From a virus (lineage: Duplodnaviria; Heunggongvirae; Uroviricota; Caudoviricetes), in the IMG/VR virus record IMGVR_UViG_2778261227_000016, positions 1 to 11,602 of that record: DNA of 11,602 nucleotides, one strand, 5' to 3'. Of the stretch, positions 1-11,602 are shown in pieces. Under the pieces are notes generated by a model that worked only from the letters and a program-made list of their open reading frames with translations, was not told the origin of the DNA and made no database searches. The stretch's first letter is position 1. Each line of letters opens with the position of its first letter. Position numbers and translations under genes: made by a program.

Positions 1-516
1 ATGAAATTTAAAAAATGTCTTCTGCCTGTGGCAATGTTAGCGTCATTCACTCTGGCAGGATGCCAGTCAAATGCTGACGATCATGCTGCCGATGTTTATC
101 AAACCGATCAACTGAATACCAAACAAGAAACTAAAACCGTTAATATTATTTCCATTCTTCCCGCAAAAGTTGCCGTAGACAACTCCCAAAATAAACGGAA
201 CGCACAAGCCTTCGGCGCGCTTATTGGCGCAGTCGCTGGCGGTGTTATCGGCCACAACGTCGGGTCTGGCAGCAATTCCGGAACGACGGCAGGTGCAGTT
301 GGCGGCGGAGCTGTAGGCGCGGCAGCGGGTTCTATGGTGAATGATAAAACCTTAGTGGAAGGTGTTTCTTTAACCTATAAGGAAGGCACCAAAGTGTATA
401 CCTCTACCCAGGTGGGTAAAGAGTGCCAGTTTACGACAGGTTTAGCCGTTGTTATTACCACGACGTATAACGAAACGCGTATTCAGCCAAATACTAAATG
501 TCCTGAAAAGAGCTAA
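1..516 (+). CDS. yfgH: Host lipoprotein with glycine-zipper region (YfgH-like)
   Basis: ATG at 1; lipoprotein signal with lipobox LAGC (MKFKKCLLPVAMLASFTLAGC); Gly/Ala-rich glycine-zipper stretch GALIGAVAGGVIGHNVG...GAVGGGAVGAAAG; 171 aa matches the size I recall for E. coli YfgH, and the adjacent same-strand 179-aa gene matches YfgI. Symbol is from recollection, not a search. Confidence 0.55.
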   Translation: MKFKKCLLPVAMLASFTLAGCQSNADDHAADVYQTDQLNTKQETKTVNIISILPAKVAVDNSQNKRNAQAFGALIGAVAGGVIGHNVGSGSNSGTTAGAVGGGAVGAAAGSMVNDKTLVEGVSLTYKEGTKVYTSTQVGKECQFTTGLAVVITTTYNETRIQPNTKCPEKS

Positions 517-531
517 TAATCAGGAGGAGTC

Positions 532-1071
532 ATGAAGAAAGTTTTTCTTTGCGCCATCTTGGCCTCCTTAAGCTATCCGGCTATCGCCTCATCATTGCAG
601 GATCAACTCTCTGCTGTAGCAGAAGCTGAACAGCAAGGTAAAAATGAAGAGCAAAGGCAGCATGACGAATGGGTCGCGGAGCGCAACAGGGAAATCCAGC
701 AAGAGAAGCAACGTCGCGCAAATGCCCAGGCCGCCGCTAACAAAAGAGCGGCAACGGCAGCGGCAAATAAGAAAGCTCGTCAGGATAAACTGGACGCCGA
801 AGCCTCTGCGGACAAAAAACGCGATCAAAGTTATGAAGATGAGCTACGCAGCTTAGAGATTCAGAAACAAAAACTGGCGCTGGCAAAAGAAGAAGCCCGC
901 GTTAAGCGAGAAAACGAATTTATCGATCAGGAACTGAAGCACAAAGCTGCGCAAACCGATGTGGTGCAATCTGAAGCTGACGCCAACAGAAATATGACTG
1001 AAGGCGGTCGCGATCTGATGAAAAGCGTGGGCAAAGCAGAAGAGAACAAATCGGACAGCTGGTTTAATTAA
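532..1071 (+). CDS. yfgI: Host secreted charged/coiled-coil protein (YfgI-like)
   Basis: ATG at 532 preceded by AGGAGG (521-526); N-terminal signal peptide MKKVFLCAILASLSYPAIA; K/E/Q/A-rich low-complexity body; 179 aa, 15 bp downstream of the yfgH-like gene on the same strand, as in the E. coli yfgH-yfgI pair (recollection). Confidence 0.5.
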   Translation: MKKVFLCAILASLSYPAIASSLQDQLSAVAEAEQQGKNEEQRQHDEWVAERNREIQQEKQRRANAQAAANKRAATAAANKKARQDKLDAEASADKKRDQSYEDELRSLEIQKQKLALAKEEARVKRENEFIDQELKHKAAQTDVVQSEADANRNMTEGGRDLMKSVGKAEENKSDSWFN

Positions 1072-1110
1072 TCGATGTTAGTAACTTCAAGCCTATGATT
1101 CTTGAAGATA

Positions 1111-1145
1111 AAAAACCCTCTGTAGTAACAGAGGGTTTTGTTCAT
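1111..1145 (+). terminator. Rho-independent terminator after the yfgI-like gene
   Basis: Perfect 7-bp stem CCCTCTG (1116-1122) / CAGAGGG (1129-1135), loop TAGTAA, followed by TTTTGTTCATTC; an A-run on the 5-prime side makes it potentially bidirectional. Confidence 0.7.
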
Positions 1146-1172
1146 TCATAGTGCAGGGATTAAAATCATTCC

Positions 1173-1209
1173 CACTCAATTATTTACGGATACCATAACC
1201 AATTGAGTG
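1173..1209. repeat. 9-bp perfect inverted repeat CACTCAATT / AATTGAGTG with 19-bp spacer in the host-prophage junction
   Basis: CACTCAATT at 1173-1181 and its reverse complement AATTGAGTG at 1201-1209, between the host terminator and the spanin stop codons; candidate att-arm or recombinase-binding element. Confidence 0.3.
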
Positions 1210-1290
1210 ATAACATTTTTAAAAAGATGAATTTTTCCCGTACCGTTTTATATACCGTCACCGGAAATCAGTACCATGAAAAATGCCATG

Positions 1291-1773
1291 CTATCTGTTC
1301 ATGGTGTCGTACTGTTTTTCGCAGACTCTTCCGGCTTCGGCTGCCCGGTCAGCATACTCTGCCAGTTGTCTGTTTCTCTCGAGAGATTTGCTGAGCACGT
1401 CGGCAAGCAAAACTCCGGTGTCTGCGGCTGACGACCCAGCGCCGACAATGGCGTTATAGTGCCTGAGCTGCTCACGGATGGCAACGAGCTGTTGCTGCAA
1501 CCGGCCAGCGCGAGCGGCAGCATCAAGAGCATCATTGCGCGCCTGGTCGATCCTCTGCTGCGCTTCACGTTCATTGATCGCTTTCTCCTGTTCGTAGTGC
1601 TGACGAACTATCTCATCTTCGGTTTTGCGGTCTTCTTTCGCCTGTGCATACCCGGCATCGTACTGACGACTGCCGTGTACACTCCAGGCAACAACTCCTG
1701 ATATGGCCAGAACAGCAAGCGCCGCCATTATAATCAACTGTTTACGGTATGCTTTTACGAATGCCCAGATCAT
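1291..1773 (-). CDS. Rz-like inner-membrane spanin (i-spanin)
   Basis: 160 aa; N-terminal TM helix ([18 protein letters not shown]) then a charged coiled-coil-like periplasmic region ([50 protein letters not shown]); ATG at 1773 overlaps the endolysin stop as ATGA (1773-1770); contains an embedded lipoprotein ORF in another frame. Confidence 0.75.
1299..1574 (-). CDS. Rz1-like outer-membrane lipoprotein spanin (o-spanin), embedded in the Rz-like gene
   Basis: ATG at 1574 with AGGAGA about 8 nt upstream on the minus strand; lipobox LAGC after a hydrophobic run ([13 protein letters not shown]); Pro/Ser-rich mature region; lies wholly inside the i-spanin gene in a different frame, the classic embedded Rz/Rz1 architecture. 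Confidence 0.7.
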   Translation of the reverse strand: MNVKRSRGSTRRAMMLLMLPLALAGCSNSSLPSVSSSGTITPLSALGRQPQTPEFCLPTCSANLSRETDNWQSMLTGQPKPEESAKNSTTP

Positions 1774-2399
1774 ACAGCCAGCACCTTACTGGCAGTGACG
1801 TACCGCGAGCGCCGGTCGTCGATGCCATTCCGGCCACCATTGATAATCAGAGTTACACGTGCAATATCTCCGGGATACTTCATGCAGCCTTTGCTGGAGA
1901 AGAACCACGCCGCGCTACGAGCCGCGTATTCGTCCTGCGTCAACAGCTCAGGATTCTCCAGCAGGTCCACTTTTAGGCCGTTTCCGCAGTCACGATAGTT
2001 ATTCAAACCGGTAATCTGGATAAGCCCGCGCCCACGGTAATTCCAGCCATCGCCGGGAGCATTGTTACCCATGCGTTTGCTGTATACCAGATTTGCGATC
2101 GCGCGCTGGCGCTCAAGTGGCAATGGTGGTTCACCAGCACGGCGACCAAGTGCATTAGCCTGCACCTGAGTGAGACGCCCAGCCCGAACGAAGTTAGCCA
2201 GTCCGCTGACACTGTAGTTGAAATTCTCCTGCAACCTGGTGAAACCACCAGACTCATGCCCGACCTGAGCAATAAACATTGCCTGATCTTCTGCTTTGCT
2301 GATACCAAACTCTTTCATCGCAGAAGTTATATGCGAGAACCAGCGTGCGGCCAGCGCCTCGCTAATACCAGCAGCTCGCTGGAATTGTTTAATCTCCAT
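1770..2399 (-). CDS. Endolysin, glycoside hydrolase family 19 (chitinase-like) type
   Basis: Start placed at the internal ATG 2399-2397 ([11 protein letters not shown]...) with GAGG Shine-Dalgarno just upstream; the 77-residue upstream extension in the ORF track is rejected. Contains the GH19-like motif [10 protein letters not shown] and [12 protein letters not shown]; about 209 aa; sits between holin-like genes and the spanins. Confidence 0.8.
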
Positions 2400-2697
2400 G
2401 TTTAGACCTCGATACTTTGAAAATTTGAACGACGTTACCGCGCGTTTTAATAACCGCAGCGAGCATGACAGCGTTGATAATGACCTCAGATAAATCCACA
2501 GCCATTGGCGTGCGTAACCAGATTGCATAGACGACACGAACAGGAATACTTGCCGCAGCAACAATAAGGAAATAAGCAAGCCACCCTCCCCATCTTCGAT
2601 GTTGAGAGCCGTTACGCCGGAATGTGACAACGCGAATTGCTATGCCAGTACAAATGACTGCATTGGTGATAAGCAAAAAAAACTCATGCGTTACCAT
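2389..2697 (-). CDS. Small membrane protein in the lysis cassette (second holin or antiholin candidate)
   Basis: 102 aa; ATG at 2697 with GGGAGA upstream; two or three hydrophobic helices ([16 protein letters not shown]; [23 protein letters not shown]); its 3-prime end overlaps the endolysin start by 11 nt. Confidence 0.5.
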
Positions 2698-3088
2698 CGT
2701 CTTTTCTCCCCGGAATTAACTCGCGTGGATTATCGGAACGGTGATAGAGCCATATACCAATACGCACAGCAACAATTGCTGACACGAATGCGCCAGCTGA
2801 GAAAACAATCCCTTTTTCAAAAGAGTCCTGCGTGATGGTAGGGATCAGGCTGGCTATGCCGATAAGAATTGATGCTGCTGGTTTATAAAAAAGAAGGCCG
2901 CAGAGAAAGCTAAGCATCGACAAGAGTACACGACGACGAATAGGATACTCTACCGCAGAGGTAACAAAAATCACCGCCCCAGCCAAAGCCCCCAAAGCAA
3001 CCTCAGGAGGAACTCCTGCTATCACCGCCGCCAGAGAACTCATGCTAAGCCACTGATTTAAAGTTTCACTGGTTAGTTGAGCTGACAT
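2684..3088 (-). CDS. Holin-like multi-pass membrane protein
   Basis: ORF-track start at 3097 is GTG; I prefer the in-frame ATG at 3088-3086 (MSAQLTSE...) with GGTGGA about 7 nt upstream. About 134 aa with 3-4 hydrophobic helices and a charged C-terminal tail ([18 protein letters not shown]); first gene of the lysis cluster. Confidence 0.5.
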   Translation of the reverse strand: MSAQLTSETLNQWLSMSSLAAVIAGVPPEVALGALAGAVIFVTSAVEYPIRRRVLLSMLSFLCGLLFYKPAASILIGIASLIPTITQDSFEKGIVFSAGAFVSAIVAVRIGIWLYHRSDNPRELIPGRKDDGNA

Positions 3089-3192
3089 GTTTTCCACCGT
3101 TTACTGTGCATAAAGACCCCCATTAGTTGGTGATCACATCATACACAATAAACCATATATGGTTAAACCTGACTAAGATTGCTCTTAACGAA

Positions 3193-3209
3193 ATTACCCG
3201 AAAGGTGAT
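3193..3209. promoter_or_regulatory. Dyad motif copy a: ATTACC-cgaaa-GGTGAT (candidate operator)
   Basis: In the divergent intergenic region between the holin-like gene and the acyltransferase gene, 38 nt upstream of the acyltransferase ATG; shares both half-sites with copies at 6703, 7083 and 8122. Confidence 0.4.
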
Positions 3210-3246
3210 ATCATTGACGTATCATATGATTTTGTGAAAAAAAATT

Positions 3247-4302
3247 ATGCTAGAAGAGAAAAAAAGCCACGCCATTGATTATGTAAAGTGTATTGGTATT
3301 GTTCTTGTTATATTTGGTCATTACCCAAATACAATTATCAATATACTAAAGCCATACATGTATCACATGCCTCTATTTTTCTTCTTGGGTGGGATTCTTT
3401 TTAATACAAAAAAAGGAAGTATAAAGCACTATAAAAACTTAGCAATTAAATATCTACTATACATAATTATGTCGTATGTTTTTTTGGGATTGACTGTTAA
3501 GTTAATGCATTATTTGTTTGAAACTCAAGACAAATTAATTTACGTTAACAATCTTTATGATTCTGTGATGTTTGCACTGAAAAGCAATTTTCACAACAAT
3601 CCGTTATTTATGGTTGGATGGTTTTTATTGAGCTATATGCTCGTTCTTGTAGTTGCATATCCATTTTACAAAATAATTGAGACGTATTTAAACGAGACGA
3701 CAGCGAAAGTTTTTTCTTTTACGATTGGACTCGCTATTGGATACGTGGCGATTACATATGTATCACCAATGTACAAAGAAAGCAAGATGTTCTATTTTAA
3801 CACTCTATGTCAGGTGATGGTTGGTTTGTCATTCTTCATGATCGGCTACGCCGCCAAAAATGTGATATGGAAATTTCTAAATCCATATACTACATTTACC
3901 TTGTTTTTATCCGTTATTTTCTTTCGTCAGTCTGGATTAATCACGAATTTATATATGTCATGGAGCACTTACGCAGATGGTTTTGTCATGAGCCTAGTTG
4001 GTGCGTTAATTGGAATTTATATAATATTTTTCTTTGCCGACCTGTTTTCAAAAGCTGGCGACTATAAATTAATGCGTATGGTTGGCAGTGAAAGTAAGGC
4101 TATAATGACGTTTCATATGTTAAGTTTCACGATAGTTGACATTATTTTCTCGCTACTAGGTTTCTATACAGTTGATAAAAAGCAGATACTCAATCACTTT
4201 ACATCAGCTTATTCCCTTCCTTTGAATATATTAATCGCAATATTCCTGTCTATTTTATTAGGGAAAGCATTAAGGAAGTTATCTAAAGGCGTATACGCAT
4301 GA
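3247..4302 (+). CDS. Acyltransferase family 3-like integral membrane protein (candidate O-antigen/LPS O-acetyltransferase; AT-rich accessory gene)
   Basis: 351 aa, about 10 hydrophobic helices; N-terminal motif DYVKCIGIVLVIFGHY resembles the conserved first-helix Asp/Arg...His motif of acyltransferase-3 (Oac/OafA-type) enzymes; strongly AT-rich (17 of 60 G+C in 3301-3360); opposite strand to and directly beside the tailspike gene. No obvious Shine-Dalgarno before the ATG. Confidence 0.5.
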   Translation: MLEEKKSHAIDYVKCIGIVLVIFGHYPNTIINILKPYMYHMPLFFFLGGILFNTKKGSIKHYKNLAIKYLLYIIMSYVFLGLTVKLMHYLFETQDKLIYVNNLYDSVMFALKSNFHNNPLFMVGWFLLSYMLVLVVAYPFYKIIETYLNETTAKVFSFTIGLAIGYVAITYVSPMYKESKMFYFNTLCQVMVGLSFFMIGYAAKNVIWKFLNPYTTFTLFLSVIFFRQSGLITNLYMSWSTYADGFVMSLVGALIGIYIIFFFADLFSKAGDYKLMRMVGSESKAIMTFHMLSFTIVDIIFSLLGFYTVDKKQILNHFTSAYSLPLNILIAIFLSILLGKALRKLSKGVYA

Positions 4303-4320
4303 AGCCCCTTTTGGGGCTTC
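4301..4320. terminator. Stem-loop between the convergent acyltransferase and tailspike genes (bidirectional terminator candidate)
   Basis: Perfect 8-bp stem GAAGCCCC (4301-4308) / GGGGCTTC (4313-4320) with TTTT loop, between stop codons at 4300-4302 (+) and 4329-4331 (-); no long U-tract on either side. Confidence 0.5.
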
Positions 4321-4328
4321 TAAATGAA

Positions 4329-6599
4329 TTACGGAACTCGCGTTAGTACGTTATTATTCCAGTAACATTCACCACTCGCCAGACCGGTAGCTGAAGTAGG
4401 AAGAGTGAGTTTCATTGAGAGGTTAGTCAACTCAATCTTGTCGGTGTCATAAGACCCAAGCCGCAGTCTGTTCGAGCTTAACAATCTTGTGCTATCATTT
4501 GAAAACGAAAAAGAGGTACTATTTATCCTTACATTACCAATTGTTGTTGCAGACGCACCACTTGGAAATCCTCCATTAAAATTATCAAAAATATCATTCA
4601 GAGATCCTGATACTGAAACTCCAGAAACACCGTTCGTCACAGTTACAATTTGCTGTTGTGCATCACAAGAATCTGTTAATAAATTGCCAATAAGAGTACC
4701 TGCTGTAATTGAAATGTGGTTACCTATAATCTTGTTATCACCATGTGTTATATCAACGATATTGGTGCACGCCCCGATATGCTGGATATTGATATGGTTG
4801 CCACGTAACTCACCACTTGGTTGAGCGTTATTGGGTCCTTTAAGGTTAACATCGACACGGCATACGCCATTAAACATTATGTTGATTTTGTTGTTGTACC
4901 CTCTTCTTACTCTCAGTGGGCTGTCAATCGTGCCGTAGTTGGCAGAATTCATTGCGGTGAGCTCAACATCAATATCCGCTGAGCGATCCAGCAATACCAA
5001 CCCCTCGTCTAACTCCTTACCCGACACTGATCCCAACCCGCAGTTTAGCGCGTAGATATCTTTGAAACTACCGAACGAAATATCTGTAGCATAGCTTGGT
5101 GTCACCATTTCTCTGACGTTTCTTATCACTCGATCACAGTTCTCAGCGGAACAATTATAGTAGTGAACGTCTGTTGCAGTAGTCCATTCGCCAACACCAT
5201 TTTCACGACCAACAAATTCAAATGCTGATGAGCAACTTTCAACTTTTGCACCTTCAATTCTTATATTATCAACGCCGTATTCCCAGTTAAACGCCTTCCC
5301 GCCTGCTGAGTATTGTGATGACGAACCTCTGCGGCAGTTACGTATCACGCCACCAATCGACAAAACGTTCCTGCATTTACTACCGCTGATACCATTTTCA
5401 CCTTGCACATCAGACGTCGGATAACCAATATTCCCCCCATCTATATGTGGATTAATGAAACGTACATTTTCAACAGGATTACTATAAGTCCCCAGCACAG
5501 CAATCACTCCACCAATAGTTGATTTGGCAGTTAGCGTAATAAATGATGGCTTCAGCCATTCCATAGTCACATTACTAGGAACAACGATGTTATCAGAAAT
5601 TGGATATACCATTTCTTCAGTTATGATAACGCGAACACCAAATTTTGATGCTGCATTAACCGCCCCCTGAAGTCCATACAAAGTATCCGTATCAGATGGC
5701 GTAACACCAAAATCCTCTGGTGTTATATCGAATGCAGAGCGAACCCACTTCAGAGCACCACTACCAGCGACAACACCTCCATCATCTAAATCAGAGGTCG
5801 CCTTTGCGATAAACTCACCGCCACCCAACAAGGATCCAGAATGCCAGCCTTTCAACAAAATCCTCTGGCCTTCAAACTCCGGAAAAATAGAACGCAACTC
5901 ATTGAAACTATTACATTGCCCAATGCGCTTGAAACCATCAGGCTTTGCTAACTCTATAAGAACGTCTGAGGCTGACCCAGAAGGTGGTGTTATAACAATA
6001 ACGTTACCACTGTTATCAAAAGCTGGCATTTTATTGCGTCTGCCATCAACGTCAGGAAGTTGGTTTATTGGCTCAGGTACGCGAAGAGTTCTGCTAAAAT
6101 TTCCTGATGCGAGGCTATCCACATAATTTTTTGTTGCAGCATCCTGCGGTCTTACTGGATCACGTAAATTTCTGATGTAATTATTCATCGCATCATAATA
6201 GTTTGCAGCAAACGATGGCTTACGAAGCGCCAGTCTGAACCAATTACGAGTTTGCTGAATCAGCATAGTTAGTTTATCAAATGCATCCTCATGCACCTCA
6301 GCAAAAAACTTACCCTGGTTACGCAGATCTGTCTCCTGCGTAACCAGGAGCTCTCGAGAGATAGATATCTGATGACCGTTTGCCAATGCCTTCGACAAAA
6401 TTACATTGCCACCATTATATCCTCCAGCCCCGGTAACAGAGTAATCAGTATCCAGTTTCAACACCGTGATGTTTTCATTGAGGTCAGCAATCTGAACGGT
6501 CAAGTCTGACTTTTTGAAAATTCTGAATGTATACGGAAATGATGTCGTTACGCCGTTACCAGTGTATTCGTTGTGATCAACTTCGGTTGAGACCGTCAT
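4329..6599 (-). CDS. Tailspike / tail fiber protein with beta-helix-type receptor-binding (depolymerase-like) body
   Basis: 756 aa; ATG at 6599 with GGAGA about 8 nt upstream; N-terminus MTVSTEVDHNEYTGNGVTTSFPYTFRIFKKSDLTVQ... resembles the conserved particle-attachment N-domain of podophage tailspikes (recollection); central and C-terminal region rich in Gly/Asn/Ser/Thr/Val repeats typical of right-handed beta-helix folds; the 3-prime third is visibly more AT-rich than the 5-prime part. Confidence 0.8.
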   Translation of the reverse strand: MTVSTEVDHNEYTGNGVTTSFPYTFRIFKKSDLTVQIADLNENITVLKLDTDYSVTGAGGYNGGNVILSKALANGHQISISRELLVTQETDLRNQGKFFAEVHEDAFDKLTMLIQQTRNWFRLALRKPSFAANYYDAMNNYIRNLRDPVRPQDAATKNYVDSLASGNFSRTLRVPEPINQLPDVDGRRNKMPAFDNSGNVIVITPPSGSASDVLIELAKPDGFKRIGQCNSFNELRSIFPEFEGQRILLKGWHSGSLLGGGEFIAKATSDLDDGGVVAGSGALKWVRSAFDITPEDFGVTPSDTDTLYGLQGAVNAASKFGVRVIITEEMVYPISDNIVVPSNVTMEWLKPSFITLTAKSTIGGVIAVLGTYSNPVENVRFINPHIDGGNIGYPTSDVQGENGISGSKCRNVLSIGGVIRNCRRGSSSQYSAGGKAFNWEYGVDNIRIEGAKVESCSSAFEFVGRENGVGEWTTATDVHYYNCSAENCDRVIRNVREMVTPSYATDISFGSFKDIYALNCGLGSVSGKELDEGLVLLDRSADIDVELTAMNSANYGTIDSPLRVRRGYNNKINIMFNGVCRVDVNLKGPNNAQPSGELRGNHINIQHIGACTNIVDITHGDNKIIGNHISITAGTLIGNLLTDSCDAQQQIVTVTNGVSGVSVSGSLNDIFDNFNGGFPSGASATTIGNVRINSTSFSFSNDSTRLLSSNRLRLGSYDTDKIELTNLSMKLTLPTSATGLASGECYWNNNVLTRVP

Positions 6600-6702
6600 G
6601 TTAAATCTCCAGATAGTCGCAGCACCCGTTGCGCCGCATATCCGGTCATTCTATTACCTGAAAAACCACATATGGATAGATAACCCATAAATACGAACAG
6701 AT

Positions 6703-6719
6703 ATTACCTTTCAGGTGAT
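6703..6719. promoter_or_regulatory. Dyad motif copy b: ATTACC-tttca-GGTGAT (candidate operator)
   Basis: In the divergent region between the tailspike start (6599, minus) and the LexA-box promoter of the antirepressor locus; identical half-sites to copy a. Confidence 0.4.
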
Positions 6720-6755
6720 TCGCAAAACGTGCTGGATAGCAAGCAAATTATTTGA

Positions 6756-6775
6756 TACTGTATAAATATACAGTT
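6756..6775 (+). promoter_or_regulatory. LexA (SOS) box overlapping a promoter upstream of the antirepressor locus
   Basis: TACTGTATAAATATACAGTT matches the E. coli LexA consensus TACTGT-(AT)4-ACAGTA: CTGT 6758-6761, an 8-nt A/T-only spacer, ACAG 6770-6773. Overlaps a -35-like TTGATA (6752-6757); the first ATG with a Shine-Dalgarno (GGAGA 6783-6787) is at 6795. Confidence 0.65.
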
Positions 6776-6794
6776 ATTGCATGGAGAAGATAAG

Positions 6795-7052
6795 ATGCAG
6801 CAGTATCACTATCCACTGGAAGACGGATTTACCGAAAGGATTCACACGCCGGGAGGCGTCAGGTCACTAGTGGAGGGATCGCACTTGATGAAATTACTCC
6901 GGGATCTCGATAAGGATGGATTTAATGTCGATGGCCCACTTGCCGAACTGACTGCACTGATTAACTACGTCACCAGCTCACAGATGTCTATGCGGGATCT
7001 GCAAACACATCTCGACTATTGTGCCGAACAATTACGAAAACAAACCAGATAA
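6795..7052 (+). CDS. Small protein paralogous to the C-terminal domain of the downstream antirepressor
   Basis: ORF-track start at 6777 is TTG; I prefer ATG 6795 (MQQYHYPLEDG...) with GGAGA upstream; 85 aa. Residues HTPGGVRSLVEGSHLMKLLRDLDKDGFNVDGPLAELTALINYVTSSQMSMRDLQTHLDYC align by eye with the C-terminus of the 7365-8051 product (HSPSGVLGLTENSLLMNLLNQLQDDGHDVSGAAAELTTMFCYIVGVSKCLRDIQTHAEYI), about 40 percent identity. Confidence 0.5.
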   Translation: MQQYHYPLEDGFTERIHTPGGVRSLVEGSHLMKLLRDLDKDGFNVDGPLAELTALINYVTSSQMSMRDLQTHLDYCAEQLRKQTR

Positions 7053-7082
7053 GGTTTGCAATTACCAAATGGAGTGCTTATA

Positions 7083-7099
7083 TTTACCTTTGCGGTAAA
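7083..7099. promoter_or_regulatory. Dyad motif copy c: TTTACC-tttgc-GGTAAA (candidate operator) overlapping a promoter-like element
   Basis: Perfect palindrome arms ATTTACC / GGTAAAT; immediately downstream of -35-like TTGCAA (7055-7060) and -10-like TATATT (7079-7084), i.e. at the -10/+1 position typical of repressor operators. Confidence 0.4.
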
Positions 7100-7191
7100 T
7101 TTACATCACACTCCTCTTGTGCCATAGTAATCGGGCACTGGCAAAATCCAGTGCCGGGATTGGCGTCCCGAGTTACTACAGAGGCACATAT

Positions 7192-7211
7192 GCCGCATAA
7201 GCGGTTTTTTT
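7192..7211 (+). terminator. Weak intrinsic terminator / attenuator-like hairpin in the antirepressor leader
   Basis: Short stem GCCGC (7192-7196) / GCGG(T) (7201-7205), loop ATAA, followed by a run of seven T (7205-7211); lies in a roughly 310-nt untranslated leader that also holds an 8-bp-stem hairpin (7134-7155) and a GAAA-tetraloop hairpin (about 7251-7266). Confidence 0.3.
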
Positions 7212-7364
7212 ATGTGTAAAGCGCACCTATTCTATGGTGGGCTGTGTGGGGGCACCGAAAGGTGCGCCGGGTCCTTTGTAGCCGGTTACGCCAACCCTGC
7301 ACAGTTCACCACCAACCGATTGGCGTCGGTAGTGGTGATTAACCTAACTACAAAGGTGATCGCT

Positions 7365-8051
7365 ATGACTGCTAACGTAACCCCATCTGTTTTTCATTTT
7401 GAATCAGAAGCAACCATTCGAGCCATTGTTATTGATGGAAATCCTTGGTTTGTTGCCAAAGACGTTATTAAAGCTCTTCAACTGACAAACCCCACTATGT
7501 CAATAAAATCTCTTGATGATGATGAAAGGGCTAAATTTAACTTAGGCCGTCAAGGCGAAACCAATATTATCAACGAGTCAGGCCTCTACACACTGATCCT
7601 CCGCTGCCGCGATGCGGTGACACCAGGCACTACCCCCTACCGCTTTCGTAAATGGGTTACAGGTGAGGTTCTTCCTCAGATCCGCCGCACCGGAAGTTAC
7701 ATTAAAAACTCGCTCCCGCAGGAAGAACGCATAAAGATGGTTGCCGACCAGGTAGCCAGCGCCACAGCATCAGCAGTGATGCAGGCAATGAAGGTAGAGA
7801 ACAAAACCTACAGCGCCCCACTGAAGCCCGGCTACCGCAGCCTGATTCATTCGCCGTCTGGTGTTCTCGGCCTGACGGAGAACTCACTGCTGATGAATCT
7901 GCTGAACCAGTTACAGGACGACGGGCACGACGTATCGGGCGCGGCGGCGGAGCTGACCACCATGTTCTGCTACATCGTCGGTGTGAGCAAATGCCTGCGT
8001 GATATCCAGACACACGCGGAGTACATCAACGACAAAGCAGGGTTCTTCTGA
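7365..8051 (+). CDS. Phage antirepressor with N-terminal Bro-N/AntA domain
   Basis: Start placed at ATG 7365 (MTANVTPSVF...) with AAGGTG upstream; the Cys/Gly-rich upstream extension in the ORF track (from 7212, directly after a T-run) is rejected. Bro-N signature IRAIVIDGNPWFVAKDVIKAL...ESGLYTLILRCRDAVTPGTTPYRFRKWVTGEVLPQI; 228 aa. Confidence 0.8.
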   Translation: MTANVTPSVFHFESEATIRAIVIDGNPWFVAKDVIKALQLTNPTMSIKSLDDDERAKFNLGRQGETNIINESGLYTLILRCRDAVTPGTTPYRFRKWVTGEVLPQIRRTGSYIKNSLPQEERIKMVADQVASATASAVMQAMKVENKTYSAPLKPGYRSLIHSPSGVLGLTENSLLMNLLNQLQDDGHDVSGAAAELTTMFCYIVGVSKCLRDIQTHAEYINDKAGFF

Positions 8052-8121
8052 CGGGCGGCGGCACAGGGATGTGCCTTTAAATAATTCTGTACAGATTGCA
8101 GACTGGGGGTGAATAGCGTAC

Positions 8122-8138
8122 TATTACCTTAAAGGTAA
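8122..8138. promoter_or_regulatory. Dyad motif copy d: ATTACC-ttaaa-GGTAAA (candidate operator) upstream of the two-gene module
   Basis: About 45 nt upstream of the 8181 ATG; overlaps a weak promoter-like element (-35-like TTGCAG 8096-8101, -10-like TACTAT 8119-8124). Confidence 0.4.
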
Positions 8139-8180
8139 ACCTGTTTTTATTTTATACCTGTAACTTACCGGAGATTAAAG

Positions 8181-8507
8181 ATGACAAAACTTGGATTCGT
8201 GATGAGAGGTCCGGTAAGAAGCGGAACTCATGCAAAGCGTAGCAAGAGTCGTATTTTTACTGGTAAGGTTGTAGCACGTAAATCAGCTATTGGCTCGTTC
8301 AATAGTGAAAATGCGGCATTGCGCCATATTTTTATCAGCACAAAGCCAAGAGCATCCGCTGATGTGCATACAATGACTATTCCTATCACAAAGAATATAA
8401 AGCGGATAAAAAAGCTCTCATCTGCAGAATCAAAAGAGATATCTTTCCGCCAGCTTAACTCATTAGAAACGCATATGAAGGAAGAGGAATTCGATGTTTT
8501 TGAGTGA
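8181..8507 (+). CDS. Small basic protein with acidic C-terminal tail; putative antitoxin/partner of the downstream gene
   Basis: 108 aa; ATG 8181 with GGAG (8170-8173); Lys/Arg-rich N-terminal half (KRSKSRIFTGKVVARKS), acidic C-terminus HMKEEEFDVFE; its stop overlaps the next ORF start by 14 nt (translational coupling); AT-rich. Confidence 0.45.
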   Translation: MTKLGFVMRGPVRSGTHAKRSKSRIFTGKVVARKSAIGSFNSENAALRHIFISTKPRASADVHTMTIPITKNIKRIKKLSSAESKEISFRQLNSLETHMKEEEFDVFE

Positions 8508-9006
8508 GTATAGCGGGAAGGTTATACCTACTGGTGAGTTTAAAACTGATGACTTTCTGATTTCGCTAAAAGATGCTTTTAAACAACACTGGCGTCATGG
8601 TCATCATCCTGATCTGGGAAAAGATACTCTTTTTGAAAGACCAGACGAAGTATTAGGTTTCCATCTCAGAAAGGTTCATGTCAATATTGGTGAATATGCA
8701 TCATATTCATACTCATGTACTGAACAGTGTTGGGATGAGTGGTCATATGGATTGATTGATGAACAAGGAAATTACAGGCCAAAACCAACCAGTAACGCAT
8801 ATCTCATATATGCAGTCAATGAAATAAGAGATGCAGCCTTACTAGCTTATTGGGACCCGCCCGCACACACCAAAGCTAACGCAAAAGTTTGGATGGATTC
8901 CGTATTGAATTTCACAAAATTATTTCATGAACGAACGAATACAGCTCCACTTAGTAGAAATGTTTATCCGTGGGATTATTCGTACAAATCCAAAAAGCCT
9001 GCATAG
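8494..9006 (+). CDS. Putative toxin, YafO-like (type II toxin family) by motif resemblance; function unverified
   Basis: 170 aa; ATG 8494 with GAGGAA upstream; motifs GFHLRKVHVNI, AYLIYAV and LLAYWDPPAHTKANAKVWMDSVLNFTKLF resemble the HIHL / LVY / LLxxILxPxxHxxA pattern I recall for YafO-family ribosome-dependent mRNA interferases. No HMM search was possible. AT-rich (20 of 60 G+C in 8521-8580). Confidence 0.4.
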   Translation: MFLSEYSGKVIPTGEFKTDDFLISLKDAFKQHWRHGHHPDLGKDTLFERPDEVLGFHLRKVHVNIGEYASYSYSCTEQCWDEWSYGLIDEQGNYRPKPTSNAYLIYAVNEIRDAALLAYWDPPAHTKANAKVWMDSVLNFTKLFHERTNTAPLSRNVYPWDYSYKSKKPA

Positions 9007-9087
9007 TAGTTTTTTATGGACGAAACAAAAGTCAGTGCTACACTCATTGACGCCACATTGAGGTTGATTATAGATGGAAATTTCACA

Positions 9088-9249
9088 ATGAAAAAAGCAT
9101 TTGCTGCACTGTTCGTTTTGTTGTCTCTGGTAGCTTCAACTCAGGCCTTTGCCGGTCGTTGTCAGCACGACAGCGATACTGCCGCTGACGGCTCCCGCTG
9201 CGGTGGGCGTTCTGCGGATTCCCGCCCGGGTGGCGGTGGCATTCGTTAA
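9088..9249 (+). CDS. Small secreted peptide (signal peptide plus about 31-aa Cys/Gly-rich mature peptide)
   Basis: Start placed at ATG 9088 (MKKAFAALFVLLSLVASTQAFA-GRCQHDSDTAADGSRCGGRSADSRPGGGGIR); typical Sec signal peptide with AxA cleavage site; two Cys in the mature part; the ORF-track start at 9016 lacks a Shine-Dalgarno and would put 24 residues before the signal peptide. Confidence 0.4.
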   Translation: MKKAFAALFVLLSLVASTQAFAGRCQHDSDTAADGSRCGGRSADSRPGGGGIR

Positions 9250-9272
9250 AAACAAGGCCGAGAAAGCGGCCT
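9246..9272 (-). terminator. Rho-independent terminator ending the minus-strand virion/membrane-protein unit (possibly bidirectional)
   Basis: 6-bp GC-rich stem AGGCCG (9255-9260) / CGGCCT (9267-9272), loop AGAAAG; on the minus strand the hairpin is followed by TGTTTTTAA (complement of 9246-9254); lies between the + peptide stop (9247-9249) and the minus-strand 98-aa gene stop (9281-9283). Confidence 0.55.
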
Positions 9273-9280
9273 GTGACATG

Positions 9281-9577
9281 TCACGTTCCTTTTCTGAATG
9301 ATAGCCGTTCGAAAAATGATGACATTCCACCGCAGACAATAGCAAAGATGATCCCACCAAAGAAGAGAAGGCCAGCCTGCCACCACTCCCACCGCCATAC
9401 ATCCACAGCGCCAATCATACCAACAATCGCTCCAACAAACGGAATATAACTCACGACAAAAGCAACGGGAGCTGCAATTACCCAGTGCAACCCCCACCAT
9501 GATTCAAGCCCAGCCATAATTGCTGCCAACTGAAAAAGACCAACGACGATATAAACAATGAATCCTATAGCTTGCAT
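9281..9577 (-). CDS. Small three-helix membrane protein of unknown function
   Basis: 98 aa; ATG 9577 with AGGTGA about 5 nt upstream; hydrophobic helices (IGFIVYIVVGLFQLAAIMAGL; VIAAPVAFVVSYIPFVGAIVGMIGAV; AGLLFFGGIIFAIVCGGM), Trp-rich loop WRWEWWQ; the overlapping ORF-track entries 9136-9414 and 9246-9500 are rejected. Confidence 0.55.
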   Translation of the reverse strand: MQAIGFIVYIVVGLFQLAAIMAGLESWWGLHWVIAAPVAFVVSYIPFVGAIVGMIGAVDVWRWEWWQAGLLFFGGIIFAIVCGGMSSFFERLSFRKGT

Positions 9578-9589
9578 GTAGTCACCTAT

Positions 9590-9763
9590 TTACCCATTAA
9601 AAATCAGAGGCCTCCCCTCAATAAGGCTTGCAACAAGAACTACTCCCTGCACAACAAAGATGAACCAGCAAATAGCTTGAGTCTGAGGGTTAAGAAAATA
9701 TTTGTAGCGGTCAATAAATAACAATCCACCAGAAATTATCACACTCAAAATAATTAAAAACAC
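9590..9763 (-). CDS. Unlisted small hydrophobic ORF (57 aa, GTG start) between the large virion gene and the 98-aa membrane gene
   Basis: Hand translation of the minus strand: (GTG)FLIILSVIISGGLLFIDRYKYFLNPQTQAICWFIFVVQGVVLVASLIEGRPLIFNG, stop TAA at 9592-9590; AAGGAAG precedes the GTG and overlaps the large gene's stop; two predicted TM helices; fills a 195-bp gap and ends 13 nt before the next gene's ATG. Absent from the ORF track, presumably below its length cutoff. Confidence 0.35.
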   Translation of the reverse strand: MFLIILSVIISGGLLFIDRYKYFLNPQTQAICWFIFVVQGVVLVASLIEGRPLIFNG

Positions 9764-9772
9764 AACACTTCC

Positions 9773-11602
9773 TTATTGCGGAGTGACATCCTGAGGTCGC
9801 CACCAGTATGTCTGGTTAAACTCTTTCTTCGAACGTTGCTCCATTTTACGCAAATATCCTGGTGAAAAATACTCCTGCATCTGGTTAAAGATCATGTGAT
9901 CGAGAGCCGCCTTCAAGTACCAGAGATTCGCACCAGGCATCAAACCTTTCCCCAGCTTCACCAGATCACCACCAGTCTGCTCACTCTTCCCTTCCACAGC
10001 ATTTAACGGTATGCCCTGAGCAATCTTCACTACGTCATCAACCAGACCAGCTACCGGGCCAAGCATCGACGCCAGCGCGCCGCTTCCGTACCTAGTGTGA
10101 TCTGACAATAAAAAGTCACCATAAAGGCCAAGACCACCACCTTTCAGTAGAGCACCAAGCCAGAATTTTGCGGCATCTTCTCCTGTCATCTCTCGAGGAT
10201 TACGACCAGACGCAAGGTCGTTAAGTTGTTGCGACAAAGCGCCAAGAATGGTCGTACTGGCAATAAACGTCGCAATATATGCCGCACGCCCACCAGCAGA
10301 CGGCATACCCATAGCGCGTGACCAGTGACGCATAACAACCGAGATAGGGAACGATTTAAACAGGAAAACACTTCTCGTTAATTCACCTTTCCATGTTCCA
10401 CGCTGAAGACCAGACCCTACGAACATCTGTTCACGTGCGCCCGGTGTAATAACAGCCATATCAACTTCTTCAGTTACGGCACCGAGCAGTTTACGCATTG
10501 CCTCAAATTTCACACGTTCAGGCTCACCAAGATGTTTAACTGCTGAATCAGGGATACGCATAATGCTTTCCGGTGTCAGCATCGTATTATTACCGTTCCC
10601 CCAGTCCTCCTGTTGCGCCAGCTTCCATACGCTCCAGTCTGTGTCAGTAATCCCTTTGCTTTTCAGGATACGAAAATCAGAGTCATCGAGGCTACGAAGG
10701 TCTGGTGTCCGTGACACTACTTCTCCTAGGCTTCCCATCATAGTTACGCCATAGGCGCGCTTGTGCGCATCTGACCATGCTGTAAGCCCACTGGCACGCA
10801 TTACCGCCGTTGCCGCCCAACGAGACACAGACGGCCCCATATTATCCATCGCCCAGCGGTTAACGCTGCCAAGTAGAGATTCCATCGCCAGACCAGCTCG
10901 GCGCGCCCGCGCAAGCTCAGTACGGTTCGTTGGGTCCATAGCTTCAAGCTGGTTGCGGAATAACTGGTTCATTGGAAGGTTGGTAACCTTCGCAGACAGA
11001 TACATGGTTCCAAGATCAGAGAACGATGACAGCAACGCGGATCCGAGTCTGCTGGCAACCAGCCAGTTGCGGATATTGTCAGACCATCGCGCGATGTGCG
11101 GATTCGCTACAGGCTGTGTCTTTCCGGAAATAAAGTTGTACAGGTTCTCTGTTTTGTTCGCCAGCCGCTCGACGCTACCGGTTTTACTCGGGTTAGCTGT
11201 TGCCGTTTCAGCCTTCACCTGATCAAGAAGGGAACGGAAAACATGATCGGGGTTTGGGCCATATGTTTCCACCAGAGCAATATCTTTACTGATCCCTTCC
11301 AAGTGACCGACCATGATTTCCCATAGAGAGCGATCGCCATAAAGTTGCTGATATTGCAGATAGGAATCTGCATCTTTGAAATGTATCTGTCGTGATGCAT
11401 TACCACGGTTAGAACGTGCGCCGGAAATTCGCATTCCGGTATCAGTAAGCTTATTCAGCCCACCAGTAGCGATCGTGTTATAAGCCTCTCCAAGAAATGC
11501 AGACAACTCAGCATCGTTCATCAGTTGTGAACCGCCCCGGGAATCCTGGAGACTAAACTTCCTGAGAAAGAGGTAAACAGGATGACTAAAAATACTCGTT
11601 TT
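9773..11602 (-). CDS. Large phage virion/ejection-type structural protein, partial (N-terminus beyond window end)
   Basis: The ORF-track entry starts at ATG 11521, but the frame stays open upstream to 11602 (hand translation ...KTSIFSHPVYLFLRKFSLQDSRGGSQL-MNDAELSAF...), so the gene probably starts outside the window; at least 609 codons; no enzymatic motif recognised; Gly-rich C-terminal segment (LKGGGLGLYGDFLLSDHTRYGSGALASMLGPVAGLVDD); same strand as and directly upstream of two small membrane-protein genes. Confidence 0.6.
   Translation of the reverse strand, partial: KTSIFSHPVYLFLRKFSLQDSRGGSQLMNDAELSAFLGEAYNTIATGGLNKLTDTGMRISGARSNRGNASRQIHFKDADSYLQYQQLYGDRSLWEIMVGHLEGISKDIALVETYGPNPDHVFRSLLDQVKAETATANPSKTGSVERLANKTENLYNFISGKTQPVANPHIARWSDNIRNWLVASRLGSALLSSFSDLGTMYLSAKVTNLPMNQLFRNQLEAMDPTNRTELARARRAGLAMESLLGSVNRWAMDNMGPSVSRWAATAVMRASGLTAWSDAHKRAYGVTMMGSLGEVVSRTPDLRSLDDSDFRILKSKGITDTDWSVWKLAQQEDWGNGNNTMLTPESIMRIPDSAVKHLGEPERVKFEAMRKLLGAVTEEVDMAVITPGAREQMFVGSGLQRGTWKGELTRSVFLFKSFPISVVMRHWSRAMGMPSAGGRAAYIATFIASTTILGALSQQLNDLASGRNPREMTGEDAAKFWLGALLKGGGLGLYGDFLLSDHTRYGSGALASMLGPVAGLVDDVVKIAQGIPLNAVEGKSEQTGGDLVKLGKGLMPGANLWYLKAALDHMIFNQMQEYFSPGYLRKMEQRSKKEFNQTYWWRPQDVTPQ

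Follow-up and report, generated by a model that had tools for sequence, protein, structure and literature searches.

YafO is an endoribonuclease toxin that is grouped with the RelE/ParE BECR-fold families, and its own family (PF13957) is one of the 13 such families listed in PMC11980606. Growth inhibition by YafO was attributed to endoribonucleolytic mRNA cleavage (PMC2757953, as cited in PMC8546651), and its ribosome dependence is disputed (PMC8546651). A prophage-borne example, the yafO/ydaS-like pair of the Salmonella prophage mTmII, was proposed as a toxin-antitoxin system with a possible link to phage resistance, with no experiments (PMC9836087). The DNA analysed here (the window) is the whole stretch from position 1 to 11,602 of the IMG/VR virus record IMGVR_UViG_2778261227_000016 (11,602 nucleotides (nt), one strand). 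It carries two overlapping open reading frames (ORFs) that encode a 108-amino-acid (aa) protein (the partner) and a 170-aa protein (the toxin). Together they probably constitute an uncharacterised type II toxin-antitoxin-like pair, composed of a YafO-type toxin and a new antitoxin family and carried as swappable prophage cargo. The features of this cassette are as follows:

8141-9009, plus strand: exchangeable cassette, a 40-nt leader and two overlapping genes (blastn break-points)
8170-8173, plus strand: Shine-Dalgarno sequence GGAG of the partner gene, 7 nt 5' of ATG 8181 (sequence reading)
8181-8507, plus strand: partner ORF, putative antitoxin, 108 aa (ORF call)
8484-8488, plus strand: Shine-Dalgarno sequence GAGGA of the toxin gene, within the partner coding sequence, 5 nt 5' of ATG 8494 (sequence reading)
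8494-9006, plus strand: toxin ORF, YafO family, RelE/ParE BECR superfamily, putative endoribonuclease, 170 aa (ORF call, homology)
8494-8507, plus strand: 14-nt gene overlap ATGTTTTTGAGTGA, from the toxin ATG to the partner TGA (sequence reading)

The pair had been pointed out beforehand from the letters of the window (the original prediction). On re-reading, both ORFs, their 14-nt overlap and the Shine-Dalgarno sequence of each gene were exactly as described there. The overlap arrangement gives a predicted translational coupling of partner and toxin, and it recurred in the loci compared, in agreement with the coupling that had been proposed. The sequence ACCGGAGAT around the partner Shine-Dalgarno was kept in most aligned relatives, with one to two changes in two of them. 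The G+C counts given earlier for two 60-nt segments were exact (20 in 8521-8580, 32 in 7861-7920). The G+C content was 39.0 % for the cassette (8141-9009), 51.5 % for the antirepressor ORF, 42.7 % for the tailspike gene and 45.2 % for the whole window; the block is AT-rich relative to the antirepressor, as claimed, but the acyltransferase gene is lower still. That gene (3247-4302, 32.5 % G+C) is the most AT-rich cargo of the window.

The 170-aa protein was matched by the Pfam YafO toxin family PF13957 at 19.7 bits (E 9.5e-4, profile positions 7-100 of 101). Its 13 close relatives (66-82 % identity; Escherichia, Enterobacter, Salmonella, Serratia and Raoultella) all matched the same family (best E 2e-5), and precomputed PF13957 matches were found on at least one close relative and on several members of the wider family. 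The protein was also aligned with gp44 of phage TL-2011b (33 % identity, E 2e-27), which passes the PF13957 cut-off at 26.3 bits. For profile comparison, a toxin family profile of 41 usable members from several clades was obtained from a widened search and compared by hhalign with a canonical YafO alignment (K-12 YafO and four plasmid YafO-family toxins). The match had 97.4 % probability and an E value of 1.3e-11 over 110 columns with ~21 % identity, and covered YafO residues 17-131, nearly the whole of YafO. Against K-12 YafO alone the widened profile gave a weaker match (hhalign E 3e-4), and BLASTP of TL-2011b gp44 against K-12 YafO gave none. By homology, the 170-aa product is a real but distant and divergent YafO-family toxin; the YafO-like character assigned to it in the original prediction is borne out by PF13957, by gp44 and by the profile alignment. 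The description of the locus as an undescribed system has to be dropped for the toxin, since an identical protein (WP_000479990.1) is already named 'type II toxin-antitoxin system YafO family toxin' in RefSeq/PGAP.

The canonical invariant residues G32, G39, D41, H62, T80, L86, Y88, H109 and F128 of YafO were aligned to G36, G42, D44, H62, T99, L104, Y106, H125 and F144 of the toxin, and these toxin positions were invariant or at least 90 % conserved across the 41 family members. YafO H60 corresponds to K60 in the 170-aa toxin and to H in the TL-2011b clade. Relative to K-12 YafO, the toxin has an insertion of ~25-30 aa (roughly residues 64-97) in which W80 and W83 are invariant. The isoelectric points (pI) of the toxin and of YafO are near neutral (6.4 and 7.0). 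An AlphaFold2 model of the toxin had a pLDDT (predicted local distance difference test score) of 90.2 with the wider family alignment and of 49 with the 13-sequence alignment. No relevant structure was found by PDB sequence searches with the toxin family profile, YafO and YafN. When contigs were scanned with the toxin alignment, two Psychrobacter matches were rejected as spurious (they lay inside other genes) and one true locus was retained. Among 50,697 phage records, a toxin homologue was found in two only and a partner homologue in none.

The two genes were inherited together. Eleven loci from Escherichia, Salmonella, Serratia, Citrobacter and metagenomes were collected, nine of which were analysed in detail. 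All eleven had both ORFs, again overlapping by 14 nt (ATGnnnTnGAnTGA), whether the locus had been found through the toxin or through the partner, and the overlap was kept in nine of the nine loci compared in detail. Look-ups of toxin homologues always led to the partner directly upstream, and look-ups of partner homologues always led to a 170-aa gene directly after them. Because this identical ORF arrangement recurs in all eleven loci, the pairing is far beyond chance, and the expectation that both genes would be conserved together in relatives was confirmed from either side. The surroundings of the pair vary: upstream are Bro-N, pRha or AlpA genes, and downstream are the peptide gene, a Rap1a gene or other ORFs. 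Every toxin clade that was examined has a small overlapping upstream ORF.

The partner belongs to phrog_5933 (function unknown, E 3e-73) and had no Pfam, NCBIfam or PADLOC family match; NCBIfam contained no family for either cassette protein or for the 53-aa peptide encoded downstream. When 1.84 billion representative proteins were searched exhaustively with HMMER, only 14 partner matches were obtained at E<=1e-3, ~10 of them full length (104-116 aa). Overall the partner is strongly basic (pI 10.6), and the uneven charge distribution noted earlier was verified: residues 1-35 contain ten K/R and no D/E, and the last 14 residues contain six D/E and one K/R. Three segments were distinguished. The basic N-terminus (residues 1-25, MTKLGFVMRG..KRxK) and the tail (79-108, SSAESKEISFRQLNSLETHMKEEEFDVFE) are conserved, with column conservation of 0.71 and 0.80, and residues 26-78 between them vary (0.42) and also carry the insertions and deletions. 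Across the nine loci the toxins had a mean pairwise identity of 72.4 % and the partners one of 46.5 %; in 35 of the 36 pairs the value for the partner was the lower one. The tail has an amphipathic pattern (I86, F89, L92, L95, M99, F104, F107) and an acidic end.

The C-terminal 34 aa of the partner were aligned in register to the C-terminus of the 139-aa and 153-aa partners of the sister clades (E 1.1e-3 and 5.5e-3), which are otherwise unrelated to it. A shared tail on differing N-terminal regions is as expected of a toxin-binding segment; the conserved ~34-aa tail may therefore be the part that binds and blocks the toxin, and the 108-aa protein is a putative antitoxin of a new family. The statement that the partner is not of the Phd/YefM type that pairs with YafO in E. 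coli was correct: no PF02604 (Phd/YefM) match was obtained even at E<=1, whereas K-12 YafN matches that family at 31.5 bits, and BLASTP of the partner against K-12 YafN gave no match.

The limits of the cassette were set by comparison with sister phages. Blastn homology to TL-2011b and phiv142-3 ends at 8139/8140 and restarts at 9010, and 8141-9009 is the only stretch missing from these two phages; 8141-9009 is therefore the exchangeable unit. It occupies a variable slot beside the antirepressor, as had been supposed: among 5,426 complete E. coli genomes, ~516 (~9.5 %) have the flanks and 69 (~1.3 %) have the cassette. In other genomes the slot is filled by, among others, a YafO pair of the TL-2011b type, small hypothetical ORFs, a DUF4760 protein or a pair with a DUF2335 membrane protein; in phage EC.W1-9 the latter pair is made of a 108-aa protein and the DUF2335 protein. 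The elements that flank the cassette are as follows:

8124-8138, no strand assigned: perfect palindrome TTACCTTAAAGGTAA (TTACC-N5-GGTAA), probable backbone repressor operator (sequence, recurrence)
9016/9088-9249, plus strand: trailing peptide ORF, 77 or 53 aa depending on the start (ORF call)
9088-9249, plus strand: 53-aa signal-peptide protein (MKKAFAALFVLLSLVASTQAFA followed by GRC...), backbone gene, phrog_14503 'membrane associated protein'

The peptide gene lies in a block (9010-9285) that is 97 % identical in TL-2011b, phiv142-3 and EC.W1-9, all of which carry other cargo. In relatives from Salmonella, Serratia and Citrobacter, the genes after the pair are a Rap1a gene on the opposite strand or ORFs of 135-154 aa, with no 53-aa peptide. 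Because it sits in backbone DNA and is missing after the pair in other genera, the peptide is placed outside the module, of which the original prediction had made it a part; judged from these alignments, its gene is a backbone gene that trails whichever cargo fills the slot.

The palindrome sits outside the cassette, in DNA common to phages with other cassettes, and precedes the cassette in every related locus. Directly 5' of it is a candidate promoter with a weak -35 element (TTGCAG, 8095-8100) and a -10 element (TACTAT, 8118-8123); these hexamers were read by eye and were not listed by the consensus scan. A promoter scan of the 40-nt cassette leader found none. The window contains two perfect copies of the palindrome (8124-8138, and 7084-7098 before the antirepressor leader) vs 0.00 expected, and a copy with one mismatch (6704-6718) before a small Ant-like ORF. 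Among the aligned relatives, nearly all retain TTACC and GGTAA as half-sites, and the spacer varies. The complete genome of phiv142-3, which is without the cassette, has ten perfect and five one-mismatch palindromes vs 0.59 expected, nearly all of them intergenic and at the heads of transcription units, including both flanks of the repressor gene. The break-points of cargo exchange lie directly 3' of the palindrome.

From this distribution, TTACC-N5-GGTAA is probably the operator of the phage immunity repressor. With a predicted repressor operator at the promoter of the cassette, expression is probably tied to the lysis-lysogeny switch, beyond antitoxin autoregulation alone. Two other assignments were rejected. 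One was that the palindrome serves as the antitoxin's own operator: it is located beyond the limits of the exchangeable unit, unrelated genes also stand behind it, and a cassette-free phage has many copies. The other was a likeness to ACCT-N3-AGGT, the palindrome of MqsA: conservation among the sites is confined to TTACC and GGTAA and does not extend to the inner T and A.

Several results weigh against a toxin-antitoxin pair of the proposed kind. The 170-aa protein stays below the PF13957 gathering score (19.7 vs 25 bits), and its 13 close relatives gave no hhalign match to K-12 YafO alone. The partner is basic while most type II antitoxins are acidic, and no DNA-binding domain was recognisable in it with Pfam and NCBIfam; its comparison with antitoxins that bind DNA found no support, the sole upstream palindromic operator being that of the phage backbone. 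Since this operator is a backbone element that also precedes unrelated cargo, classical autoregulation is not evident. The resemblance of the partner tail to that of YafN was weak, both for partner residues 78-107 against YafN 67-95 (hhalign, 31 % identity, E 0.061) and for a profile of the nine partner tails against YafN (E 0.1, same register), and composition-preserving shuffles of the last 35 aa gave p ~0.03 for four of the six partners and ~0.44 for the two Serratia partners. With E values of 0.06-0.1 and a shuffle p of ~0.03, homology between the tails of partner and YafN is a weak lead only. No model of PADLOC-DB 2.0 matched the partner, the toxin or the 53-aa peptide at E<=1, and the suggestion of an anti-phage module thus finds no counterpart among these defence-system models. 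Literature searches (RefSeq accessions, phage YafO systems) returned no study of the family and no experiment on a close homologue.

Some of these points would suit a protein that kept the YafO fold and is no growth-inhibiting RNase (e.g. a ribosome- or RNA-binding accessory factor), next to a partner of unrelated function: the protein is only remotely similar to canonical YafO (~21 % of aligned columns identical), the Pfam score is under the cut-off, W80 and W83 are invariant within the ~25-30-aa insertion, comparison with solved toxins yielded no significant structural match and the charge of the partner is atypical. We nevertheless consider this quite unlikely, given that the invariant residues of canonical YafO (G, G-[KR]-D, H62, T, Y, H125, F) do not vary among the 41 members, that the toxin is strongly constrained across genera (72 % mean identity) and that the operon structure is of the toxin-antitoxin type in every clade. 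A three-gene system with the 53-aa secreted peptide as a functional component is very improbable: an 81-nt gap separates the co-oriented peptide gene from the toxin gene, and no separate promoter was found for it by the scan, but the near-identity of its surroundings in phages with unrelated cargo and its absence after the pair in Salmonella, Serratia and Citrobacter relatives speak against it.

The operator leads to another explanation, in which the pair is an effector of the phage cycle rather than an addiction or defence module. It would be silenced by the repressor in the lysogen and switched on with the antirepressor at induction or infection; the YafO-like RNase would remodel or shut off the mRNA of the host or of a competitor phage, and the basic 108-aa protein would time or target it. 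The sole recognisable promoter is indeed in the backbone, with TTACCTTAAAGGTAA abutting its -10 element, the cassette leader is just 40 nt long with an empty promoter scan, and further copies of the palindrome stand before the antirepressor and the small Ant-like ORF and on both sides of the repressor gene of phiv142-3 (15 copies vs 0.59 expected in that genome). Binding of the palindrome by the repressor, and repression through this binding, are however both suppositions, and basal transcription or read-through from the ant operon is possible. A general mRNA-cutting RNase would hurt the expression of the phage as well, and the gene architecture, in which a small upstream partner is coupled to the toxin and evolves fast in its middle, is classical for toxin-antitoxin systems. 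We regard this explanation as unlikely, and the toxin-antitoxin-like pair is retained as the preferred reading.

For the toxin-antitoxin-like pair, the following mechanism is proposed. A coupled bicistronic cassette is carried as interchangeable cargo of a Uetakevirus prophage. Transcription would enter from the backbone promoter, whose -10/+1 region is covered by TTACC-N5-GGTAA, and this presumed immunity-repressor operator would tie cassette expression to the lysis-lysogeny switch. The 108-aa product, the presumed cognate antitoxin, would be made first and in excess through coupling. Its C-terminal ~34 residues with the acidic end would bind and block the toxin, and its fast-evolving basic N-terminal two thirds may serve for nucleic-acid binding or as a disordered handle for degradation. 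The 170-aa product would be expected from homology to arrest growth by cutting mRNA, with K/R43, D44, H62, T99, Y106 and H125, which are invariant in the toxin clade and in canonical YafO, as the candidate active site. Prophage stabilisation and/or abortive defence against other phages are plausible roles, and no known defence model matches.

A bolder form of this proposal can be formulated. YafO-type toxins would in general be neutralised by a short portable C-terminal module of ~34 aa. Its pattern would be hydrophobic-S...S-x-x-[ILV]-S-x-R with an acidic/aromatic end, and it would be common to YafN and to five or more partner families that are unrelated in other respects. Here the module would be fused to a basic, mostly unstructured N-terminal part without a DNA-binding domain, control would be handed to the immunity repressor through TTACC-N5-GGTAA, and the pair would be an output of the lysis-lysogeny switch that fires at induction or infection and not a self-regulating addiction module. 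That all of this applies seems doubtful.

If confirmed, the pair would provide an experimentally tractable, prophage-borne branch of a small and poorly understood family, YafO (~1,000 Pfam members), which is without a solved structure and disputed in its ribosome dependence. A new antitoxin family would be added as well; since nothing but a short C-terminal tail is conserved between it and other YafO partners, it would be a convenient case for mapping YafO neutralisation. As the slot holds a second YafO-type pair and unrelated cargo, it is a reasonable place to seek genes of defence or competition. The category itself is not new: it is well known that phages carry toxin-antitoxin modules and that antitoxins are swapped.

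Bases 1-1,071 of the window are E. coli yfgH and yfgI, and the remainder is one end of an epsilon15/phiV10-like (Uetakevirus) prophage whose insertion site adjoins yfgI, in the yfgI-guaA region of E. coli. Uetakevirus phages integrate at the 3' end of guaA, and the Bro-N protein of one of them was found by experiment to be an antirepressor (PMC9782041). The prophage gene order is Rz, GH19 endolysin, holins, acyltransferase, tailspike, small Ant-like ORF and Bro-N antirepressor, followed by the 108-aa and 170-aa ORFs, the 53-aa peptide gene and then injection/internal-protein genes on the opposite strand. The acyltransferase gene, between holin and tailspike genes, is in the place of the O-antigen acetylase of phiV10. 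The same three genes (partner, toxin and peptide) are annotated by RefSeq in E. coli chromosomes that are 99.7 % identical to the window.

Further observations were made on the neighbouring genes. In the leader of the Bro-N antirepressor gene, Rfam matches were obtained for isrK (74.2 bits) and the C4 antisense RNA (RF01695, 79.5 bits), at 7135-7211 and 7230-7316 of the window; they resemble the immI region of the P1/P7 type. Because these RNAs occupy the leader, the 279-aa ORF called at 7212-8051 is over-called, and the RefSeq start of the gene is at ~7359 (230 aa). A hairpin at ~7133-7156 shows compensatory changes in Serratia relatives. The 3' end of the Bro-N antirepressor gene (7818-8074) is 96 % identical, in the other orientation, to the 3' end of the second Ant gene of TL-2011b (4155-4411 of the TL-2011b stretch compared, opposite strand). 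The C-terminal Ant domain that both proteins have is also the content of a small 85-aa ORF (ATG 6795), which consists of the antirepressor C-terminal domain alone (phrog_450). A perfect LexA-box-like sequence (CTGTATAAATATACAG, 6758-6773) is located ~20 nt 5' of this ORF and is kept, with small changes, in Salmonella and Klebsiella relatives; the 85-aa ORF may be a small antirepressor under SOS control. A Rap1a-like gene (PF18602, type VI immunity-like) adjoins the cassette on the opposite strand in the relatives from Salmonella, Citrobacter and a metagenome (4557-4940, 3373-3795 and 3346-3729 of the three stretches), where it replaces the peptide gene and the 98-aa membrane ORF of the window.

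Among known systems, YafN-YafO of E. coli K-12 has in common with the cassette an antitoxin gene before the toxin gene (PMC11980606, Table 1), small and closely packed genes, and a homologous toxin with the same invariant G, G-[KR]-D, H, T, Y, H and F positions. The proteins on the antitoxin side both end in an acidic stretch and F-x-x-F (MKEEEFDVFE, MTDDDFNDFKE). The two systems differ in toxin length (170 aa here vs 132 aa for YafO, with no significant pairwise similarity), in the partner (basic and without a Phd/YefM domain here, acidic and with the domain in YafN), in setting (a prophage cargo slot vs the dinB-yafNOP SOS operon) and in gene spacing (a 14-nt overlap vs a 2-nt gap between yafN and yafO). 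The mTmII pair is likewise a prophage-borne yafO-like gene beside a neighbour that is not YafN, but its phage is SfI/SfV-like and its partner a YdaS-like helix-turn-helix protein; the two pairs are likened by description only (PMC9836087).

Also close to the cassette are gp45/gp44 of TL-2011b and their phage-borne kin (Klebsiella prophages, EC.W1-9 and a siphovirus tail-region cassette), whose toxins belong to the same family (33-48 % identity). Each has an overlapping small upstream ORF, and the C-termini of the partners follow one pattern, hydrophobic-S-x(3-5)-S-x-x-[ILV]-S-x-R with a subsequent acidic end. The TL-2011b pair even occupies the identical slot, with the Bro-N antirepressor on one side, the 53-aa peptide on the other and the same palindrome before it. 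The N-terminal parts of these partners are unrelated to that of the 108-aa protein, their lengths are 59, 63, 139 and 153 aa, and the overlaps are of 26, 8, 11 and 14 nt. The plasmid YafO-family toxins (Klebsiella, Enterobacter and E. coli IncF) also have a non-Phd 'hypothetical protein' gene that abuts or overlaps upstream, and one of these partners ends in ...IDEDVFANFSFH, acidic residues and then F-x-x-F. Their toxins are 136-152 aa long and nearer to K-12 YafO (30-38 % identity), their partners are larger (175-205 aa), and they are on plasmids, not phages. Some of the plasmid partners have a signal-peptide-like N-terminus, which would be odd for a cytoplasmic antitoxin.

Wherever the gene upstream of another YafO-family toxin was annotated or called, it likewise encoded a partner other than YafN (175-205 aa on plasmids, 59-153 aa in phages); the pairing of the window, first thought to be possibly a new combination, is therefore one of many. 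For the setting and regulation of the cassette, rather than the cassette itself, the nearest likeness is phage P1, in which C1 operators are scattered at the heads of many transcription units and the immI region has a C4 antisense RNA. The cassette similarly stands directly after an antirepressor with a C4-bearing leader, in a genome with a single scattered type of palindromic operator; the operator sequence and the type of phage are different.

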